Assembly (NCBI GenBank): GCA_019057865.1
Contig: JAHLWP010000037.1
Location: 1-42,029, forward strand
DNA: 42,029 nucleotides
Reading direction: 5' to 3'
Origin: Promethearchaeota archaeon
GTDB taxonomy: Archaea > Asgardarchaeota > Lokiarchaeia > Sigyniarchaeales > SOKP01
Shown: positions 11,814-42,029 of the stretch, piece after piece
Layout of the letters: the number at the start of each line of letters is the position of its first letter
Position numbering within the stretch: position 1 is the stretch's first letter
Position numbers and translations under genes: made by a program
The notes under the pieces: model-generated
Told to the model about the DNA's origin: nothing
The model's input: the letters and a program-made list of their open reading frames with translations, nothing else
The model's database searches: none

Positions 11814-11962
11814 ATTATAAATTTCTCTTATTTTTAATCTTCATATTTCTGTGTATTTAGTTGGGCATGAAAGTATTTTATTGTCTTAATTTTATAGAAA
11901 GTACTTTTTAGATCAATTAACTTTTTATTTAATAATAAATAATTAAATCAATAATTTTTACT

Positions 11963-12034
11963 ATGATAATATGGTTTAATTTTATGGCAACTGGAAATTA
12001 TTATTTTTGGCAGTGGCCTTGGTCTTGGTTGTAA
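11963..12034 (+). CDS. Putative Trp-rich leader peptide MIIWFNFMATGNYYFWQWPWSWL (alternative start 11984)
   Basis: Five TGG codons, four of them alternating just before the stop, 154 nt upstream of trpB2. Confidence 0.75.
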   Translation: MIIWFNFMATGNYYFWQWPWSWL

Positions 12035-12096
12035 GACCCATTGTATTGCCTTAAACCATACCTTACTTTCTCTCTTTTCTTAATTTTCGTTTTTCT
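11970..12096 (+). promoter_or_regulatory. Candidate attenuator: nested leader hairpin plus pyrimidine tract
   Basis: TATGGTTTAA(11970-79)/TTAAACCATA(12051-60); GGCAA(11986-90)/TTGCC(12046-50); CAGTG(12011-15)/CATTG(12039-43); GGTCTT(12021-26)/AAGACC(12033-38); C/T tract 12061-12096. Confidence 0.65.
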
Positions 12097-12188
12097 AAAT
12101 TATCGAATACTCTATTTAAATGTGCATTAATTATTTTGATTTCCAATTTAGTAATGAGACACAAAAAATAAGTTGATAAAAAAAGGTA

Positions 12189-13598
12189 ATGAAAATGGTA
12201 AATTATAATAATTCAAGAATTCTATTACAACCCAATGAAATACCGAAGGAATGGGTAAATATCTTACCAGATTTACCCTCTCCTATGACGCCCTTAGTAA
12301 ATCCTATGGATGGGAAACCTGCTCCACCAGAACTAGCATTGGCGATATTTCCAAAAGAATGTGTCATGCAAGAAGTATCTCAAGAACCAATAATTCCCAT
12401 CCCTAAGGATCTAAGGGAAATTTTCGCAAGAACCTATAGACCAAGTCCTCTTCATCGAGCATTAGGATTAGAAAAAGAATTGGGAATAAAAGGTGATGAT
12501 ATTAAGATTTTTTATAAAAATGAATCTGGCTCACCTACAGGGTCCCATAAGCCGAATACAGCGATAACTCAAGCATATTATGCTAAAAAAGATGGAATTG
12601 AAGAATTGGTCACAGAAACAGGAGCAGGGCAATGGGGTTCAGGACTTTCTTATGGATGTAATTTATTTGGTATTAAATGTACAGTATATATGGTAAGAGT
12701 GAGTTTTTTACAAAAACCGGGGAGAAAGATATTGATGAAGTCCTTTAATGCTGAAGTTCATGCAAGTCCTTCGAGACATACCGAATCAGGCAAAAATTTC
12801 TTAGAAAAAGATCCAGAACATCCAGGTAGTTTAGGAATAGCTATATCTGAAGCATTGGAACATAGTTTAAGAAGTAATACAATTAGATATTCTCTTGGAA
12901 GTGTTGTAAATTTTGTTCTTTTACATCAGACAATTGTAGGACAAGAAACAAAAATTCAGTTAGCAAAAGTAGGTATTAATAAACCGGACATAATAATTGG
13001 TTGTATGGGAGGTGGTTCTAACTTTGCTGGATTAATGATTCCTTTTGCAAGAGATAAATTACATGGAGTTCTACCAGACGTAGAAATTATTGGAGTTGAG
13101 CCGCGAGCTTGTCCTAGTGTTTGTAAAGGTGAATATCGCTGGGATTTTGGAGATACTTCTATGAAAGGACCTATTGTAAAAATGCACACGTTAGGTCATT
13201 CGTTTGTTCCAAGCCCGATCCATGCAGGAGGATTAAGATATCATGGGATGGCACCTATAATTTCAATTTTGTATAATAATAAAGTTATATCCGCATCTAT
13301 GCATCATCAATCCGAAGTAATTAAATCCGGTCTTTTATTTTCAAATACTGAAGGAATACTTCCTGCCCCAGAAACTGCACATGCCGTAAAAGAAGCAATA
13401 GATCAAGCTTTAAAAGCCAAAGAAAATAATGAAAAGAAAACAATCGTCTTTAACTTTAGTGGTCATGGCTTTTTTGATTTATTAGCTTATAAATTGTATA
13501 TGACTGGTGATTTGGAAGATTATGAATTACCGACTGAAGAAATCCAAAAAGCATTATCATCAGGAGAAATGCCAAAAATTGATGAATCTCAATTTTAA
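12189..13598 (+). CDS. trpB: Tryptophan synthase beta chain, TrpB2 type (stand-alone)
   Basis: IPKEW.NILPDLP N-terminus, PLP lysine GSHKPNTA, TETGAGQWG, GGGSNFAG, IHAGGLRYHG, PAPETAHA, FNFSGHG. Confidence 0.95.
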   Translation: MKMVNYNNSRILLQPNEIPKEWVNILPDLPSPMTPLVNPMDGKPAPPELALAIFPKECVMQEVSQEPIIPIPKDLREIFARTYRPSPLHRALGLEKELGIKGDDIKIFYKNESGSPTGSHKPNTAITQAYYAKKDGIEELVTETGAGQWGSGLSYGCNLFGIKCTVYMVRVSFLQKPGRKILMKSFNAEVHASPSRHTESGKNFLEKDPEHPGSLGIAISEALEHSLRSNTIRYSLGSVVNFVLLHQTIVGQETKIQLAKVGINKPDIIIGCMGGGSNFAGLMIPFARDKLHGVLPDVEIIGVEPRACPSVCKGEYRWDFGDTSMKGPIVKMHTLGHSFVPSPIHAGGLRYHGMAPIISILYNNKVISASMHHQSEVIKSGLLFSNTEGILPAPETAHAVKEAIDQALKAKENNEKKTIVFNFSGHGFFDLLAYKLYMTGDLEDYELPTEEIQKALSSGEMPKIDESQF

Positions 13599-33813: not shown

Positions 33814-36800
33814 TTGACATATATTAAAAAAATCTCTATGACTGGTTTCAAATCATTTGGAGAACGAACAGTAACAATCAAATTTTCAAGTGGTTTCACA
33901 TGTATTGTTGGACCAAATGGTGCGGGGAAATCTAATATTATAGATGCATTATGTTTTGCTTTAGGCAGACTAAGTAAGAAGACTATGAGAGCAAAAAGTT
34001 TAGAAGACCTTATTTTTGCTGGTGCTAAAGGAAAAAATCCCTCAACAAGAGCTTCTGTGACAATGTATTTTGATAATTCAGAAAATGTTTTTCCCGGGAG
34101 TACCGATACATTCGAAATAACACGGACTATTAAAAAAGGGGGTGGTGGAGGGTATAAAATGAATGGTAAAAAATCTACTCGTCAACAGATTCTCAATGCT
34201 TTAGCAGCAGCTAATGTAGATCCAGATGGTAGTAACCAATTCGTTCTTCAAGGTAAAATTGTTGAATTAACTCATATGAATGCAGTAGAGAGAAGATTAT
34301 TCATTGAAGAATTAATTGGGCTTCAGAAATATGACGAAATGAAAGATTCCACCTTAAAAGAGTTAGAAAAAGCAGAAAGAGATTTAGGACAGTTTGAAGC
34401 AATTTTTAAAGAAGTTTCTGCTCAGCTTAAAAAAGTTGAAAAAGAAAAAAATGATGCATTAGCTTGGAATGAATTAGATCAACAAATTAATTTCTTAAAT
34501 TCAAAATTAATTGCTTTAAAAATTTCAAAATTACGAGAAGAAGAAGATGAATTAGAAAAAAAGGTTGAAGAATCTTCAAAAATTATTGAAGAACTGAAAG
34601 AAAAGATCTCTCGACAAGAAGATATCCTGAAACAAGAATCATTAGTTATGGAGAACATTCAGAAAACGATTACTGATAGAGAAAAGGAAAGAGAAGAAAT
34701 AAATGAAAACATAACAAATTTAAAGACACAATTATCTTCAAGTCAAACTACTTTAGATTTAGCTAGAAAATCAATAGATAAATTGACGCAAGAAATAAAA
34801 AATTTAGAGAATTTACTAATGGTACTTGAGGAAGGACAAACTTATGATTCTTTAATACAAGATGTATCTAGTCAAATTTCTGAGTGTGAAAATCACCTCG
34901 AAGCAGCTAAAAAGGAAATTGAAAGAAGACAACAAAATCAATCTGAGTTTGATATAAAAATTAAAAATAATGAGGATGAAAAATCACAATTTAAAGCGGA
35001 AATTTCAAAAATACAACAAGATATCTCATCAAATAATACCCAGATAAAGCTTCTTAGAGAAAGTATAAAAAAGAATGAAGATAAGAAAATTAAATTAGAA
35101 ACTGAATTGAATAAATTGAAACGAGAAGCTGAAAGTATAGATGAAGCTATTGATGAGGTAAAAAAAACTGAAAAACAAATTAGAAAGAGAATTGAAGATT
35201 TAAAAACTAAAATTAATGAAGAAAATCAAAAACAAAAAGAGTTAGAAACTAACATTAATGCTATTCAAGAAGAAAAAAATCAACTAAATTCAAAATCGGT
35301 TCTTCTACAATCTACATTATCATCATTGAATACTGAAATTAGTATGAATAGAAATACAATCCAAGATTTAAATGATAAAAAAGCATCTTTTGAGAATAAA
35401 ATTAGAGATTTAAGTAAAGGTAAAGACACAGAAGAAGTTGTAAAAGGTTTATTGAAAGAAAATGAAAATATTAACAAACAATTGAGTGAATTAAAAACAG
35501 GTTTAAAAAAAGAAAACTCAGTATTTAGGAGTAATGAACAAAATCTAGAACTATTAAAGATGAAACAATATTCATTTGATTCAGAAATTCATGATAATAA
35601 TGCAAAAATAGATAATATTAATACAGAATTAAAAATTTTTAAAAAAGAATTAACTAAATTAGAGCGTGAAAAGGGTAATTCAGAAGTGCAAATTAATTCT
35701 CTAAATAGCAATCTATCAAAAATAGAAAAAGATACAGAAAATTTTAATTTTAAAAGTCAGAACATTCAAAGACGTTTAGAAGAACTTACAAAGGAAAGAG
35801 ATAGTATATTAGAAAAAATTGAATCTTCTGAAGTAGAATATGAGAAAAATACCCGAGATATAACTGGAATTCTTCAAATTTTAAATATGCTCACTCAAAA
35901 TATTAACATTTCTGTTGAATCTATTAAAAGTAACATCCAATTATCAAATGCAGAAGCAATTGAGACCTCTGCTGAAGATTTCAAAAAGTTTATTCTAGAT
36001 ATTGTAGATATCATGAAAACTGTTGAGGGGATTAGTATGGATACTGAACAATCCTCTGAAATGTCAGGCATGTTAAATTCTATCCTCCGAACTTTAAAAT
36101 TATTTACTGATAATGCAGATTCATCAATTGATCAATTAATTAATAGAGTTAAAGAATCTGCTGATGTAGAAGTACAAGAATCAACCTCAACCTTTGATAG
36201 CTTTGTACAGGATTTAATGGAAATTCTTGAAAATGTCTATCTTTCATTAAGAAAATTAACAATGTCAAAAAGTCAAGATTTATATAAGCAACTAGAAGAT
36301 ATCTCTGAAAATATTAAATCACAAGGTGATGATCTTAATAGTGCGGAGAAAAAATTGTCAGAATTAAGTCTTCTAAAAAAACATAATTCAGAAACCTTGT
36401 CAACATTAACAAGAAGACTTGAAGAAATTAATGGAAGAAATAAGGAATTAAATGAAAAAATTAAAAATTCTGAATTAGAAATTGAAGAAAGAAAGAAATT
36501 AGTCAATGAGAAGCAAAAAGAAACAGAAAAATTAGAAATTGAGATAAATAAATTAAAAGAACTAAAAGATACTTACTGGGAAAATATTTCGAAGATTCAA
36601 GATGATATTGATAAAAAACAAAAGGAATTAGAAGATTTAAGAGAAAATCTACAAGAATTGCACGGAATCCAAAATTTATTTGAAAATATTACAGAAATTG
36701 ACAATGACATAGGAAAGTTAAATAATATTATTGAGGAAAAGAAAAATTCAATTATCAATACAGAAGAAAGCATAAATCAAATTCATACAGAACAAGATAC

Positions 36801-38259
36801 CTTACAAAACAAAATTGAAACATTAATTTTAGAAAAAGAAAAATTTTGGGAAAAAACAGAAAGTTTAAGGAAACAAATAGACAAGGAAAATGAGTCATTA
36901 GAAGATACAATGGATCGTCTAAGAGCACTTGAAAATGTGATGAGAATTATTAATTCAATTGAAGATATTAAGAAAGAGAATATAGATGCTAACAATAAAA
37001 TTGAACTTTGTCTTAACAATATTGAAAATTTCAATTCTCAAGTAGATGAAATTCAAAAAACTGTTGATCAAAAACAACAGACTATAGATTCCTTGAGAAA
37101 TGAAAAAACTAAAGAAGTAGAATTACAAAAAGCAGCTCAAAAAGAATTAAATAAATTAAATAAGGATTTACAGAAATATCAACGCCAAATTAATGAGCTA
37201 AACAAAAATAAGGAAAGAGAACAAAAAATTTCAGAATTAAATCAAGATATTAAAGATACTGAAAAACAAATAGAATCAATTTTAGAAGAGTTAGAAAAAT
37301 TTAAAGAACAACTTAATAGTGAAAATGGAAAAAAGGATATAAAACAAAAAGAAATCGATGAATTCAATTATCAAAAGGACGAATCATGGAGAAAGCAAAA
37401 GCAATATCAAAAAATCTTAAATGATTTAAAATCAGATCTTTCTATGGAAAATGCTAAAATAAATAATTATGAATCTAAAAAAATAATTTGTACTGATCAA
37501 ATAGAGACTTTATTCCAGAGATCTAAAGAATATGGTTCACTCCCTCCTGTTACTGAGGATTTAACAGAAGCTGAATTACAATCAGATATTGGGGACGTAA
37601 CAACGAAGAAAAAAGCTCTTGAACCAGTCAACTTAAAAGCCATTCAACAATATGATGCCGTAAAAGAGAGATTCGATGAGATAGATATGCGAAGACAGAC
37701 TATTCAACGTGAACGCAAGGCGATCTTAGACGCAATAGATAAAATAGAACTTGAGAAGACAAGAACATTCATGAAAGCTTACCATGAAATAAATAGAGAG
37801 TTCAGTAGAATTTTCCAGAAGCTTAGTCCCGGTGGTTCGGCTAAAATGATCCTAGATCGCCCTGATAAACCCTTTGAAGGAGGGATTAGCATCGAAGCTC
37901 GACCTCGTGGGAAGAAAATTTCAAGTCTGGAAATTCTTAGTGGTGGAGAAAAAACTCTCGTGGCACTCTCATTTATCTTTGCCGTTCAAGAATTCATGCC
38001 AAGTCCGTTTTATATTCTCGACGAGATTGATGCTCAACTCGACGGTCCAAATGTTCACAGAGTTTCCATGTTGCTCAAGGAGATCTCTGATCAAGCACAA
38101 TTCTTGGTTATAAGCCACAGAGAGGAGAATATTGTAAATGCGGACAGGATATATGGCGTATCCATGCAGCAGTCCGGAATAACGGATATCTTTAGTGTCG
38201 ATTTAGAAGAAGAGGCAAAACGACTGTTAGAACTTCCCGACGTTCCTTCTCAAATATAA
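33814..38259 (+). CDS. smc: SMC-family ATPase with Smc-type heads, long coiled coils and a non-canonical apex
   Basis: GFKSF, GPNGAGKSNIIDA, Q-loop VLQG, PVNLKAI, LSGGEK, FYILDEIDAQLD, QFLVISHR. Confidence 0.9.
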   Translation: MTYIKKISMTGFKSFGERTVTIKFSSGFTCIVGPNGAGKSNIIDALCFALGRLSKKTMRAKSLEDLIFAGAKGKNPSTRASVTMYFDNSENVFPGSTDTFEITRTIKKGGGGGYKMNGKKSTRQQILNALAAANVDPDGSNQFVLQGKIVELTHMNAVERRLFIEELIGLQKYDEMKDSTLKELEKAERDLGQFEAIFKEVSAQLKKVEKEKNDALAWNELDQQINFLNSKLIALKISKLREEEDELEKKVEESSKIIEELKEKISRQEDILKQESLVMENIQKTITDREKEREEINENITNLKTQLSSSQTTLDLARKSIDKLTQEIKNLENLLMVLEEGQTYDSLIQDVSSQISECENHLEAAKKEIERRQQNQSEFDIKIKNNEDEKSQFKAEISKIQQDISSNNTQIKLLRESIKKNEDKKIKLETELNKLKREAESIDEAIDEVKKTEKQIRKRIEDLKTKINEENQKQKELETNINAIQEEKNQLNSKSVLLQSTLSSLNTEISMNRNTIQDLNDKKASFENKIRDLSKGKDTEEVVKGLLKENENINKQLSELKTGLKKENSVFRSNEQNLELLKMKQYSFDSEIHDNNAKIDNINTELKIFKKELTKLEREKGNSEVQINSLNSNLSKIEKDTENFNFKSQNIQRRLEELTKERDSILEKIESSEVEYEKNTRDITGILQILNMLTQNINISVESIKSNIQLSNAEAIETSAEDFKKFILDIVDIMKTVEGISMDTEQSSEMSGMLNSILRTLKLFTDNADSSIDQLINRVKESADVEVQESTSTFDSFVQDLMEILENVYLSLRKLTMSKSQDLYKQLEDISENIKSQGDDLNSAEKKLSELSLLKKHNSETLSTLTRRLEEINGRNKELNEKIKNSELEIEERKKLVNEKQKETEKLEIEINKLKELKDTYWENISKIQDDIDKKQKELEDLRENLQELHGIQNLFENITEIDNDIGKLNNIIEEKKNSIINTEESINQIHTEQDTLQNKIETLILEKEKFWEKTESLRKQIDKENESLEDTMDRLRALENVMRIINSIEDIKKENIDANNKIELCLNNIENFNSQVDEIQKTVDQKQQTIDSLRNEKTKEVELQKAAQKELNKLNKDLQKYQRQINELNKNKEREQKISELNQDIKDTEKQIESILEELEKFKEQLNSENGKKDIKQKEIDEFNYQKDESWRKQKQYQKILNDLKSDLSMENAKINNYESKKIICTDQIETLFQRSKEYGSLPPVTEDLTEAELQSDIGDVTTKKKALEPVNLKAIQQYDAVKERFDEIDMRRQTIQRERKAILDAIDKIELEKTRTFMKAYHEINREFSRIFQKLSPGGSAKMILDRPDKPFEGGISIEARPRGKKISSLEILSGGEKTLVALSFIFAVQEFMPSPFYILDEIDAQLDGPNVHRVSMLLKEISDQAQFLVISHREENIVNADRIYGVSMQQSGITDIFSVDLEEEAKRLLELPDVPSQI

Positions 38260-38281: not shown

Positions 38282-41200
38282 TTATTTATTTTTTCTGCAT
38301 TTACTGCAAGGCTCAACTTTTTGGTTTACTAATCTTTTAAAGTACTTGGGAGTCATTGTAAATTCATGCTGATTTTGACATTGCATATATACTTTTTTAG
38401 TATTATTTTCATAGTCTGAGAAGAGGGTGTATTTCAAGGATTTTACCATTTCATAAAACTCGAGTTTAGCGGTCTTTTGTCTAGTTCTATTAGGATGGTT
38501 TTTATCTGCACAGATTTTACACCAACTTCCTTGGTACACGACTGCTGGAGTAGTATTCCATTCATGATTGTTTTCGCATTTAATTTTTATAGGTTTAAAT
38601 CGTCCTTTATATGGAGTTAATAGATATCCACCTTTATCACTAACGATCTGTTGAAATTTTTCTGCAAATAACTCCATTTGACATTTTGGACAAATCTCTG
38701 TGATTTCTTCATAAGTTCTTTTTAACCAGTAAGGAGTTCGCTTAAATTTATGTCCTTTTTGGCAAATATAACGTAATGGAGTTTTGGCATTAACATACTC
38801 ATTGAGTAAATCGCAATTAAACTTTTTTCCTATTTTTCGAAACTCTTCTGTTGTTCCTTTTGTATTCCCTGCACACTCTGAACACCAATTGTCTTTATAG
38901 ATGGAGTCAGGAGTCGTGGTCCACTGGTGTCCCTTTTCACACATAAGAGTTACTTCTTTTTTAGCTGAAAAATAGGGTGTGAGTAAAGTTCCGCCTTTTT
39001 TTTCGACACATGCTCGAAATTTTTTAGCATATTTATTTTCATATATAGTAAATTCCTTATAATCATATTTAGGGATATTTTCAAGAGCCTTTCCAGTTTT
39101 TCTTTCGTATTCTTGTATTATATAATCTTGTATTTCATCGTAAGGCACGATTTTATCATCGAGGATTTGAATGAGAATTACATTATTCTCCCAACATAAT
39201 TTTAATTTGAGAGCATCTTCATTTTTAATATTTTGTAAATCCTCATTCGTCATATTAAAGGTTTTTTTACGATGTTGAATTCCTTGATATTCAAACGCTA
39301 AACCCAATTCTTTGTTATATCCATCAAGTTCCATTTGGTTCCCCTTTTCATTTACAAGCCATGGAGGATAACTTTTCGGGAAGGGCCTTTTGAAGATTCT
39401 TTTGAAGAATTGTCTACAAATTGTCTCGCTAACGTATATATGGCAATCTGGGCACCAAGTATTGGAATAAACAACACTATTGTATGTAGTATCAAAGTGA
39501 TGTCCTTCAGCGCACTCAAGGTGTATTTTTGATTTAGCATTTTTAATATTTTTCGTATGACATTTTCCCCCTTTTTTTTCTGCGATTTCTTCAATGGTCT
39601 TTATAGTTACATATTTTTGTGTTCGAATATATTTTTGATATTTTTCTTTTGGGAACATCCTTTTCAGCTGATTCCGCGCAGAAGTATCGCTTATTAGAAG
39701 CCATTCCTGTATGTCATACGCATTAAATTTTCCCTTATTTTTCAAAATAAGATTCCTAATAGCTCTGGTTAAGAGGTCATTGTCCCTAATTTTCATTATT
39801 AAAGTGATATAAGTTGAAAGTATTTCTACTTGGTTTTTAATAGTGTTGGAACTATTATTTTGAGAAACATTTTCTAACAATTTTCTCTTTTTTTTCATAA
39901 AATTAATAAAGGTTTTAGTAGGACGAAGGCTCTTTATCCAGCAACCAAATTTATTAAATTCATTAATAAGGTCTTTTATTAACTCGATTTTATGTGTGTA
40001 TTGTAAAAATTCTTCAAATAATTCAGATGTAAATTTTTTGCTTTTATATAATTCCTTATAACTTTTGAATTTTTTTTTTAAAACTTCATATTTATTAGAA
40101 AGATGTCTGAGAAATTTATATTTTATTTCACTAACAAGCGCGGGATTCCACCAATGACGATCTTGAAAGTATGCTTTAAATCCGCTTATATTCAAATATA
40201 AATGTAAGTGAATTGGGTCTATATTTCGTAGTTTATTTATGATTGAGTTAAACTCATCTCTTACTTTTTTAGTTAATTCTCCTTTTTCATATTTTTTATA
40301 TAATTCTTCTAAATCTTCATAATTTCTAAAATTTTGAATGATCTCTTTCAAAATTACTTTAAGTTCAGAGCTGAGATCTTCTTCTATAGATCCTTCTATC
40401 CAATGCTTAAGTGTCCTTTGCCATTCCTCCTCTCTTTCTTTCTCTTCTTTTTCTTCTAATTCCTTAGTTTTTAATTCTTGTTGTTCTAACCATTGGCTAA
40501 ACCCTTTTGTCTCTCTTCCTGCATATATAGATCTTTTACTAGTTTCTTGGCGATATAATTGCTGAAGCTTTTTATATTCTTCTTCTTCAGCTTCTTTACT
40601 CTCTAGCTTGTTTTTTTTCTCAATGGATTCGTTGATTCTTTCTTGATATGGCTCTACATCATCCATTTCGATATCATTTAATTCTGTGTTGATCTCTTCT
40701 TCTGCTTCTTTTTTTTCCACTTCTTGATAGATGTTTCTATTTTCATTGTTACTATAAACAGAGATTTGTTTAATTTGTTCTGATTCTTTTAAATCTGAGT
40801 TTATTTCATCAATTTCAGCTTGTTTGATTCTAAGTTCTTCAGTCATATCTTTTTCTTGTTCGTTTTGCTGTTTTTCTTCTATTTCACTTAAGAAGAAATC
40901 CTTCGCAATCTCTTCCACCTGCTCGTCTATTTCTTCTTGAGGTTTTCCTTGTTGGTGTAATTTTTCTTCAGTATTTAAAAAATATTCTATTGCATCTACC
41001 CTATCAATCTCTTCTCTTACATCATCGTCATCCTCTTCATCTTCATGGTCAATTAATTTTAATTTTTCTTTTTCTTGTTGTTCATAGAGCTTTTCAACAT
41101 TTTTTAAGAGTTTATAAGTTTCTTCTGCCTCATGCATTAAATTACTGATTTCTTCAGAATTCTTCCCTTCTTGTTCATACTGTTCATATTTTTCCCAAAG

Positions 41201-42029
41201 ATAATCAAACTCTTCTGGCTCTATCTCTGCTTCTTCTGATGTATCATTGACATCTTCCCCTTGTGCATCACCAGAAAGTATTTCCTCAATATGCTCTTCC
41301 TTCTGATCTTCTGTAATTTCTTTTTCTTGTTCCTCTAATTCTTGGGCCTCTTCCTTTTCTTCTTTATTACTATTTCTTTCTTTAATTTCCCTATAAGCTT
41401 GCTCAGCATTAAAGGCGGTATTATCATTTTCCTCTTCAGAATAGCCTAACTTCTCATCATATTCTTTCAGCATGCGTCCTAATTCTTCCATATCCCTAAC
41501 AAATTTTATCTCTTCGGTATCAATAATAGGATCTTGGTTATTTTCGTATTCTTCTGGATCTATTTCTATTGCTTCTTCCTCATTCTCTAGGTACTCCTCT
41601 TCCTCCTCAGTATATTCCTCACTTTCAGCTTGAAGTTCTTCCTGATTTTCTCCTTCTATTTCAGGATTTTCATGCATTAATACAATACTTTGAGAGCCGA
41701 TATTTTCATATTCTTCTTCCGCCTCATTAAATTGTTCATCAAACTCCTTATCAAGCTCCTCATCTGTTAATTCTTCCATTTCATGAAATCCACTATTAAA
41801 ATCCTCATCAGTCTCATCTGTTAATTCTTCCATTTCATGAAATCCTCCATTAAAATCCTCATCAGTCTCATCTGTTAATTCTTCCATTTCATGAAATCCA
41901 CTATTAAAATCCTCATCAGTCTCATCTGTTAATTCTTCCATTTCATGAAATCCTCCATTAAAATCCTCATCAGTCTCATCTGTTAATTCTTCCATTTCAT
42001 GAAATCCACTATTAAAATCCTCATCAGTC
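38282..42029 (-). CDS. Large protein (5' end beyond the window): acidic repeat region, HTH-like segment, five CxxxH...CxxC zinc-ribbon repeats and a Vsr/DUF559-like endonuclease domain
   Basis: CAEGH..WCPDC, CEKGH..WCSEC, CQKGH..CPKC, CENNH..WCKIC, CQNQH..CSKC; ELDGY...LAFEYQGIQH...D..K...C. Confidence 0.78.
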   Translation of the reverse strand, partial: TDEDFNSGFHEMEELTDETDEDFNGGFHEMEELTDETDEDFNSGFHEMEELTDETDEDFNGGFHEMEELTDETDEDFNSGFHEMEELTDEELDKEFDEQFNEAEEEYENIGSQSIVLMHENPEIEGENQEELQAESEEYTEEEEEYLENEEEAIEIDPEEYENNQDPIIDTEEIKFVRDMEELGRMLKEYDEKLGYSEEENDNTAFNAEQAYREIKERNSNKEEKEEAQELEEQEKEITEDQKEEHIEEILSGDAQGEDVNDTSEEAEIEPEEFDYLWEKYEQYEQEGKNSEEISNLMHEAEETYKLLKNVEKLYEQQEKEKLKLIDHEDEEDDDDVREEIDRVDAIEYFLNTEEKLHQQGKPQEEIDEQVEEIAKDFFLSEIEEKQQNEQEKDMTEELRIKQAEIDEINSDLKESEQIKQISVYSNNENRNIYQEVEKKEAEEEINTELNDIEMDDVEPYQERINESIEKKNKLESKEAEEEEYKKLQQLYRQETSKRSIYAGRETKGFSQWLEQQELKTKELEEKEEKEREEEWQRTLKHWIEGSIEEDLSSELKVILKEIIQNFRNYEDLEELYKKYEKGELTKKVRDEFNSIINKLRNIDPIHLHLYLNISGFKAYFQDRHWWNPALVSEIKYKFLRHLSNKYEVLKKKFKSYKELYKSKKFTSELFEEFLQYTHKIELIKDLINEFNKFGCWIKSLRPTKTFINFMKKKRKLLENVSQNNSSNTIKNQVEILSTYITLIMKIRDNDLLTRAIRNLILKNKGKFNAYDIQEWLLISDTSARNQLKRMFPKEKYQKYIRTQKYVTIKTIEEIAEKKGGKCHTKNIKNAKSKIHLECAEGHHFDTTYNSVVYSNTWCPDCHIYVSETICRQFFKRIFKRPFPKSYPPWLVNEKGNQMELDGYNKELGLAFEYQGIQHRKKTFNMTNEDLQNIKNEDALKLKLCWENNVILIQILDDKIVPYDEIQDYIIQEYERKTGKALENIPKYDYKEFTIYENKYAKKFRACVEKKGGTLLTPYFSAKKEVTLMCEKGHQWTTTPDSIYKDNWCSECAGNTKGTTEEFRKIGKKFNCDLLNEYVNAKTPLRYICQKGHKFKRTPYWLKRTYEEITEICPKCQMELFAEKFQQIVSDKGGYLLTPYKGRFKPIKIKCENNHEWNTTPAVVYQGSWCKICADKNHPNRTRQKTAKLEFYEMVKSLKYTLFSDYENNTKKVYMQCQNQHEFTMTPKYFKRLVNQKVEPCSKCRKNK
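41759..42029. repeat. 54-bp tandem repeat, about five copies in an alternating ABABA pattern, running off the window end
   Basis: CATCTG unit starts at 41761, 41815, 41869, 41923 and 41977; encodes MEELTDETDEDFN(S/G)GFHE on the minus strand. Confidence 0.97.

Follow-up and report, generated by a model that had tools for sequence, protein, structure and literature searches.

The locus examined here raises the question of whether an archaeon can sense tryptophan (Trp) through a ribosome that translates a short leader open reading frame (ORF). It lies in a 42,029-nt contig of a Promethearchaeota archaeon (GenBank JAHLWP010000037.1; "the window" refers to this whole stretch), numbered C80 in an assembly of 4.26 Mb and 99.7% completeness. 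An earlier note on this DNA had proposed that a Trp-codon-rich ORF upstream of trpB2, a gene for tryptophan synthase beta, is the leader of an attenuator. We found this ORF in relatives of the archaeon, ahead of trpB2 and ahead of complete trp operons, together with conserved RNA hairpins. From these comparisons we estimate a probability of about 0.7 that the leader is a ribosome-mediated, cis-acting Trp sensor controlling trpB2.

The leader ORF and its conservation

The leader ORF lies within a 375-nt spacer that has a Roadblock/LC7-domain gene on one side and a 469-codon ORF, trpB2, on the other. The features of the spacer and of trpB2 that matter for the argument are as follows.

11963 to 12034, forward strand: long-form leader ORF, 23 codons, 5 Trp codons; the upstream ATG and the extra Trp codon are limited to the closest relatives (L040, L041, and L140)
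11984 to 12034, forward strand: conserved core leader ORF, 16 codons, 4 Trp codons among the final 8; start, frame, and Trp codons are kept in about 40 species
12008 to 12028, forward strand: Trp codon block W-Q-W-P-W-S-W, the putative site of ribosome stalling
11922 to 11932, forward strand: TATA-like element, a candidate promoter element; the sole conserved block 5' of the upstream ORF (uORF) in a 17-genome alignment
12185 to 12189, forward strand: Shine-Dalgarno-like GGTAA of trpB2; the GGT is kept 6 to 8 nt ahead of the conserved ATG
12195 to 13598 (ORF listed from 12189), forward strand: trpB2, stand-alone tryptophan synthase beta type 2 (NCBIfam NF009057, E = 7e-190; TIGR01415, E = 2e-174); start taken from relatives

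The ORF at 11963 to 12034 contains five TGG codons and ends in W-Q-W-P-W-S-W-L-stop, exactly as the earlier note had translated it. The start of trpB2 called at 12189 is not conserved; relatives all begin at an ATG matching 12195 (M-V-D/N-Y...), and the gap between the uORF and trpB2 is 154 or 160 nt, depending on which start is used. G+C content is 24 to 35% in the window and 29% in the genome.

We determined how unusual such an ORF is in this genome. In long ORFs, 1.03% of codons encode Trp, and the probability of at least four Trp codons in eight is ~7e-7. Among 48,630 short ATG ORFs in six frames of the genome, 11 had at least five Trp codons. Thirty-four short ORFs had at least three Trp codons in the last 10, of which 32 were inside long ORFs in other frames. 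The leader ORF is the sole intergenic Trp-rich mini-ORF of the 4.26-Mb genome, and it lies directly 5' of the only Trp gene detected. A second Trp-rich candidate, on contig C3, was rejected because it overlaps the C-terminal end of a real gene in another frame. Mini-ORFs rich in Cys, Thr, or Met were likewise rejected as further leader peptides, the genes downstream of them being noncognate (a molybdopterin oxidoreductase, an AlaX-like protein, and an unknown protein).

We searched the whole assembly for other enzymes of the pathway and found no match for trpA (PF00290), the trpE-type chorismate-binding enzyme (PF00425), or trpC (PF00218), for which 14 of 14 control genomes matched; nor was there a match for TrpD or for a second TrpB. 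TrpB2 is the only Trp-pathway enzyme detected in the assembly, which implies that Trp comes from scavenged indole.

The earlier note had suggested looking for Trp-rich uORFs in relatives, and they were found. TrpB2 was present in 16 of 24 sampled same-genus genomes (76 to 88% identity), and all 17 of the same-genus loci first examined had a Trp-rich mini-ORF 5' of trpB2, ending ~155 to 160 nt ahead of it. A 15-nt core of the Trp block was present in 38 of 54 genus genomes, in one copy each except for one genome with two, and a reversed control pattern gave no matches. The core was missing from all eight sampled genus genomes that lack trpB2. The 16-codon core ORF as such is retained ahead of trpB2 in some 40 species of this genus.

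Alignment of the genus leaders identified two types of peptide. The first has 16 codons, M-A-T-V followed by four variable residues and W-Q-W-P-W-x-W-Q-stop; the second has 18 codons, with W-C or W-R added. In the window ORF, it is the second ATG, at 11984, that matches the conserved start. Start, frame, and Trp codons are constant, whereas codons 5 to 8 are hypervariable. The earlier note had also proposed that the Y-Y-F codons add a wider sensing of aromatic amino acids; these codons are part of the hypervariable segment, show no conserved signal, and give no sign of such sensing. Synonymous variation is evident at Pro (CCT, CCC, CCG, or CCA), Gln (CAG or CAA), and the stop codon (TAA, TAG, or TGA), and length differences 5' of the Trp block are multiples of three. 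Across 59 unique leaders, 226 TGG triplets are in frame, compared to 32 and 14 in the other two frames. Trp codons follow one another directly or at a distance of 1, 3, or 5 codons, without ever leaving the frame, and the last of them is 1 to 3 codons from the stop in 56 of the 59. On the evidence of these alignments, we concluded that the pattern marks a putative coding frame and not mere nucleotide conservation.

The TATA-like stretch that the earlier note saw upstream of the ATG is also conserved, as T5-A-T3-A throughout the genus. It lies 30 nt 5' of the ATG at 11963 and 51 nt 5' of the ATG at 11984. A leaderless transcript, as the note had suggested, is hence plausible for the long form found in a small clade; it does not fit the conserved ATG at 11984, some 50 nt from the box.

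A further and independent genomic context came from genome G069, of the same genus, which has two copies of the leader. The second copy precedes a complete trpD-C-F-B-A-E-G operon; a gelsolin-domain gene adjoins this operon, in keeping with an Asgard affiliation. trpD was found in 33 of 151 genomes of the order, and 28 of the trpD loci had enough upstream sequence for analysis. Nineteen of the 28 had a uORF with 3 to 6 Trp codons in the last 12, and 5 more had one with two. These peptides differ strongly, with endings such as W-F-C-C-W-R-W-H-A, W-H-W-F-W-R-A, W-I-W-A-W-R-W-H-A, and F-W-F-W-W-A-W-R-L. In other families of the order, uORFs ending in W-(A/P/S)-W plus 1 to 3 codons lie 5' of trpB2. 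Between genera, Trp-richness and a hairpin at the stop codon persist, whereas the peptide sequence does not. Among 20 trpD loci taken from further families in the phylum, we detected a Trp cluster with a stop hairpin 5' of trpD in three families; by the criteria used, no Trp cluster was detected in the higher-G+C families among these loci. The leader ORF was found only ahead of trpB2 and of trpDCFBAEG, in agreement with the tie to Trp biosynthesis that had been proposed for it. An exact 27-nt motif gave 29 matches among 185,579 prokaryotic species (one genome each), of which 25 carry the labels Promethearchaeota/Promethearchaeia or other Asgard names and four are named only "uncultured archaeon."

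Differently arranged leaders were seen in some lineages. In family f2, two loci (L022 and L025, one of them in a complete single-contig genome) share a homologous uORF of ~29 codons that ends in T-W-P-W-H, ~275 nt 5' of trpB2. In several sister genera, a conserved extra first cistron encoding 85 to 90 amino acids lies between the leader and trpD (L062, positions 1222 to 1494; L066, positions 1245 to 1502; also L057, L067, L068, and L078). It matched no Pfam family; its product could regulate the pathway or assist it as an accessory protein. Two loci of other Asgard families, L089 and L090, have a conserved mini-ORF of 9 to 11 codons (M-G-Y-R-V-W-I...) ~100 to 260 nt 5' of trpD, followed by a second, overlapping Trp-rich frame with a hairpin at its stop. 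These two are possibly trp leaders of a different build, with two uORFs.

Hairpins of the leader RNA

The predicted structural features of the leader are listed below.

12009 to 12050, forward strand: hairpin H1, enclosing the stop codon; inner stem 12021-12027/12032-12038, outer stem 12009-12015/12044-12050
11986 to 12018, forward strand: alternative hairpin H0; codons 2 to 4 pair with the first Trp-Gln-Trp-Pro codons, in competition with the outer stem of H1
12066 to 12095, forward strand: pyrimidine/T-rich tract with a T5 run at 12089-12093, a candidate oligo-T terminator
12077 to 12107, forward strand: AU-rich hairpin H2 (12077-12086/12097-12107), followed by a U-rich tail; local minimum free energy (MFE) in the window only -0.9 kcal/mol
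12118 to 12165, forward strand: conserved element H3, a hairpin at 12125-12156 with conserved flanks

The last Trp codons make up the 5' arm of H1, whose loop or 3' arm contains the stop codon. H1 of the window has an MFE of -18.2 kcal/mol (z = -3.25 versus dinucleotide shuffles), and a helix across the stop codon was found in 56 of 62 unique leaders. The stems differ in sequence between lineages while complementarity is kept; in 23 sequences of the same register, 95% of cells were paired, compared to 22 to 49% in slid controls. The C-terminal residues of the peptide (Arg, Ala, His, or Gln) look dictated by the G+C-rich stem of H1. The stop codon is followed by a conserved C-A-N-N-G-G, and H1 seems to be extended by pairing of this GG with the CC of the Pro codon.

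H0 is predicted in most members of the genus and is weaker in the window. It shows one compensatory change, ACT to ATT together with CAG to CAA, and the pairing of codons 2 to 4 in H0 would explain the conservation of M-A-T-V. H2 is weak in the window, and compensatory changes in it were identified by eye in relatives (e.g., L004, L009, L013, and L015). A further hairpin, H4, is present in most relatives and absent from the window. A simple terminator scan flagged H1 plus the T-rich tail in the window; given the AT-rich background, this is weak evidence.

H3 served as a marker of trp units. In H3, 86.9% of cells were paired, compared to 27 to 51% in slid controls, and none of 500 shuffles reached its score. 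Nine pairs had changed on both sides. One pair occurs as A-U, G-C, U-A, G-U, and U-G. Another lineage alters two inner pairs together. The flanks of H3 might form an outer helix, of which one of the four pairs is mostly unpaired. A test of strand, in which G-U cells were compared to A-C cells (19 versus 11), was not decisive. Since H3 behaves as a covarying paired element, its region is probably transcribed from upstream. A transcription start site (TSS) near 12113, which the earlier note had raised as an alternative, is unlikely, as transcription would then begin inside H3.

We built a covariance model, R1, from H3 alone. R1 matched the site in the window (E = 5e-11) and 100 of 135 genomes of the family, with one match per genome except for five genomes that had two; those of the two-match genomes that were checked (G018, G024, and G069) each contain trpB2 and a trp operon. 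No R1 match was found in genus genomes without trpB2. We then inspected 20 matches from genera outside the training set of the model. All 20 were 35 to 40 nt 5' of a trpB2 homologue, and 19 had a Trp-containing uORF 5' of H3 (17 identified by a two-Trp scan and 2 by eye). The distance from the end of the uORF to H3 was 63 to 87 nt in the 17 loci flagged by the scan. We concluded that H3 is specific to trp units and physically linked to the uORF.

Three leaders, L143, L145, and L149, have decayed. Two of them have only two Trp codons and a longer tail; the other has kept H3 and trpB2 and has no recognizable uORF. These natural variants could serve as controls.

A proposed mechanism and its alternatives

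We propose the following mechanism for the sensor. The transcript would start ~25 nt past the TATA-like box and bear the 16-codon ORF (23 codons in the clade of the window), with four Trp codons in the last eight. With charged tRNA-Trp plentiful, the ribosome would reach the stop codon and leave, H1 would refold, and expression of trpB2 would be low. With charged tRNA-Trp scarce, the ribosome would stall on the Trp block, holding H1 open and occupying the 5' end of the mRNA, and expression of trpB2 would rise. In archaea, RNA polymerase ends transcription at oligo-T or by way of FttA/aCPSF1. We rank three possible outputs: most plausibly, H1 and the downstream U-rich tracts would cause premature termination or pausing (at oligo-U or through FttA/aCPSF1) unless a stalled ribosome blocks H1; next, the stalled ribosome might shield the mRNA from 5'-to-3' decay; last, the H2-H3-H4 module might control translation of trpB2. 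Because TrpB2 is the only Trp-pathway enzyme detected, such a device would tune indole salvage to the need for Trp.

To model the ribosome, we masked a footprint of 28 nt, placed either over the Trp codons or over the stop codon, and computed equilibrium folds, a method that is blind to cotranscriptional kinetics. The masked footprint removed H0 and H1 and left the predicted H2, H3, and H4 unchanged. In these models, only H1 is demonstrably under ribosome control. We also searched for a pairing partner of the segment after the stop codon. A best-duplex search against the rest of the leader found no conserved partner. Pairing with the ribosome-binding region of trpB2 (-15 kcal/mol in the window and in L040) was rejected as clade specific and of the wrong sign. 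The variable middle bases of C-A-N-N-G-G do not covary with the 3' arm of H3.

Several observations weigh against the sensor or against parts of it. All of the evidence is comparative and computational; from it we infer that the uORF is translated and that ribosomes stall, as well as the sign of control and the output step. The genomes compared are related metagenome-assembled genomes and not independent samples. With only one codon available for Trp and with the TGG block engaged in base pairs, part of the nucleotide conservation could be structural; the single codon also limits codon-level tests at the key positions. No Shine-Dalgarno-like motif was found 5' of the uORF in alignments of relatives, and translation of the uORF is an assumption. 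Runs of T5 to T8 occur 25 to 60 nt after the stop codon in most leaders but not in all, and T-runs are expected in DNA of 29% G+C. Equilibrium folding with the masked ribosome gave no conserved, mutually exclusive terminator/antiterminator pair. A stall-dependent change in H2 was rejected, the mean H2 pair probability being 0.69 without a ribosome, with the ribosome on the Trp codons, and with it at the stop. An antiterminator in which the post-stop segment would pair with H3 through its 3' arm was rejected as a general feature, as the duplex energies were similar to those of shuffles (mean z = -0.27). Control by read-through into trpB2, as the earlier note had envisaged, is unproven; the T-runs are not universal, and the masked-ribosome folds do not alternate between terminator and antiterminator.

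Four other explanations have to be set against a Trp sensor. That the ORF arose by chance in an AT-rich spacer has a negligible probability: apart from its short length, nothing suggests it, and the density of Trp codons and the uniqueness of the ORF in the genome oppose it, while its retention at more than 60 loci already refutes it. A different possibility is that the ORF is incidental to an untranslated structured RNA, either a site for a TRAP-like, Trp-activated protein or a riboswitch that senses a ligand or tRNA. The pairing of the Trp block in H0 and H1, and of the Pro CC with the post-stop GG, would provide a structural reason for conservation; the ATG is not preceded by a Shine-Dalgarno-like motif; and the H2-H3-H4 module is an extra conserved unit to which no role has been assigned. 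An untranslated RNA, however, would need neither an in-frame ATG 7 to 14 codons upstream with a stop-free frame in AT-rich DNA nor an in-frame stop 1 to 3 codons past the last UGG, and it leaves unexplained why UGGs at variable spacing keep to one frame and why Pro, Gln, and stop codons change synonymously. In addition, no Rfam family matched, and TRAP sites have ~11 GAG/UAG repeats, compared to the 2 to 6 UGGs of the leaders. We consider an untranslated RNA unlikely.

Should the mini-ORF be translated, it might still not sense Trp supply; it could be a constitutive uORF that fixes the level of trpB2 translation or the stability of the mRNA, a TnaC-like arrest peptide sensing free Trp in the exit tunnel, or a Trp-rich micropeptide acting in trans. 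W-Q-W-P-W is conserved within the genus and has a Pro near the C terminus, as in TnaC, and trans-acting leader peptides exist in bacteria, an example being peTrpL (PMC7298713). Across genera, however, it is Trp-richness and the stop hairpin that persist and not the peptide sequence; induction by free Trp would have the wrong sign for biosynthetic genes; and the restriction to trpB2 and trp operons is as expected for sensing by cognate codons. These points make a nonsensing peptide quite unlikely. The remaining alternative places a DNA-binding repressor, comparable to TrpY of methanogens, at a second promoter directly 5' of trpB2, with H3 as a palindromic operator and the uORF on a separate short transcript. 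H3 is indeed an inverted repeat, an AT-rich, TATA-like stretch (12113 to 12120) precedes it, and its G-U and A-C cells leave the strand undecided. Nevertheless, its paired sequence changes are typical of an RNA helix and not of an operator read by a protein, no constant TATA box stands at the AT-rich stretch in leaders of the trpD type, and a TSS 25 nt past this stretch would lie within H3. The uORF and H3 also co-occur at a fixed spacing (63 to 87 nt; 19 of the 20 independent H3 matches had the uORF), and we regard a repressor as very unlikely.

Returning to the ribosome-mediated Trp sensor, we tentatively propose a specific form of attenuation that is unlike the three-hairpin switch of bacteria. 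Stalling at the Trp block would open the stop-enclosing hairpin, which by itself would gate termination or decay; H2-H3-H4 would form a second layer of control; and the system would be the first archaeal case. We place the chances of this full proposal at less than even.

Relation to known regulatory systems

Leader-peptide attenuation is a textbook bacterial mechanism that needs coupled transcription and translation and hairpin-dependent termination. The Asgard leader shares the following features with the attenuator class: a leader ORF rich in cognate codons, conservation of codons and frame, specificity for cognate genes, and regulatory codons in a helix. As in the enterobacterial trpL (RF00513), a short ORF lies 5' of Trp genes, with Trp codons clustered just before the stop; Trp codons and stop lie within a hairpin, comparable to the 1:2 pause hairpin, and there is one element per trp transcription unit. 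In contrast to trpL, the element is archaeal and has no similarity in sequence or to the covariance model; it has 3 to 6 Trp codons where trpL has 2; it lacks a G+C-rich terminator with a U-run directly ahead of the gene and a demonstrable antiterminator; and it adds the conserved hairpins H2 to H4. The output step would have to differ from that of trpL because of the way in which archaeal polymerase terminates. The RF00513 Trp_leader model found no match in the window or in 11900 to 12210, and Rfam as a whole gave no relevant match in the window at gathering score, or in 11900 to 12210 at E values up to 10.

Other regulators share single features with the leader. TrpY of Methanothermobacter also provides Trp-dependent control of archaeal trp genes; unlike the Asgard leader, it is a protein repressor that acts at promoter DNA and involves no leader ORF. 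The TRAP sites in the Bacillus trp leader are phased triplet repeats in a trp leader RNA as well, but they consist of about 9 to 11 GAG/UAG triplets that are not read as an ORF, whereas the few UGGs of the Asgard leaders are in one frame between a conserved ATG and stop. In the ermC and ermA leaders of Gram-positive bacteria, a stalled ribosome opens a hairpin formed in part by leader codons and can shield the transcript from 5'-to-3' decay, which illustrates a possible output that needs no terminator; those leaders respond to a drug in the exit tunnel and not to scarce charged tRNA. We know of no demonstration of such stabilization by a stalled ribosome in archaea. The uORFs of GCN4 and the fungal arginine attenuator peptide likewise couple uORF translation to amino acid status ahead of a biosynthetic gene; they differ in using scanning and reinitiation or peptide-mediated arrest, and homology is not implied.

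Leader-peptide attenuators are known from further bacterial phyla as well. The trp leaders of actinobacteria (PMC1262725) and the leaderless poly-Cys uORFs of mycobacteria (bioRxiv 10.1101/834739) were found by comparative genomics and, like the Asgard leader, have runs of cognate codons in small or leaderless uORFs; the output of such attenuators is not always a classical terminator. They belong to a different domain of life, and their sequences and structures are unrelated. A full-text literature search, whose coverage left out most subscription journals, found reports of amino acid leader-peptide devices in bacteria only and none in archaea, including Asgard archaea. We concluded that the logic is that of bacterial leader-peptide attenuators, while the domain of life and the RNA family are new and the output mechanism is probably new.

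If confirmed, the leader would indicate that archaeal ribosomes and RNA polymerase, or the decay machinery, are functionally coupled for gene control, and it would offer a compact system of ~230 nt, of which more than 100 genomes hold natural variants, for the study of archaeal termination and coupling. Asgard archaea are the closest known prokaryotic relatives of eukaryotes, and sensing of an amino acid by a uORF would then be documented in them. Most species of the genus have lost the trp operon and keep only TrpB2, putatively under tight regulation; this points to the salvage of indole from partners or sediment as the route to Trp.

The loss of the operon is seen genus-wide: trpD was found in 6 of 52 sampled genomes, TrpB2 and the leader are kept in most, and some genomes have lost both. 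Genome G018 has a TrpB1 match with three in-frame stops.

Five of the loci examined (L003, L005, L009, L011, and L018) have a 6-codon mini-ORF between H4 and trpB2 that ends 1 nt ahead of the trpB2 start. It holds the Shine-Dalgarno-like GGT of trpB2 and is absent from the window and from several relatives; in L004, its ATG shares the reading frame of trpB2. Two very large ORFs, of 1,481 amino acids (33814 to 38259, forward strand) and 1,237 amino acids (38282 to 41995, reverse strand), lie at the end of the window, with strong GC and AT skew.

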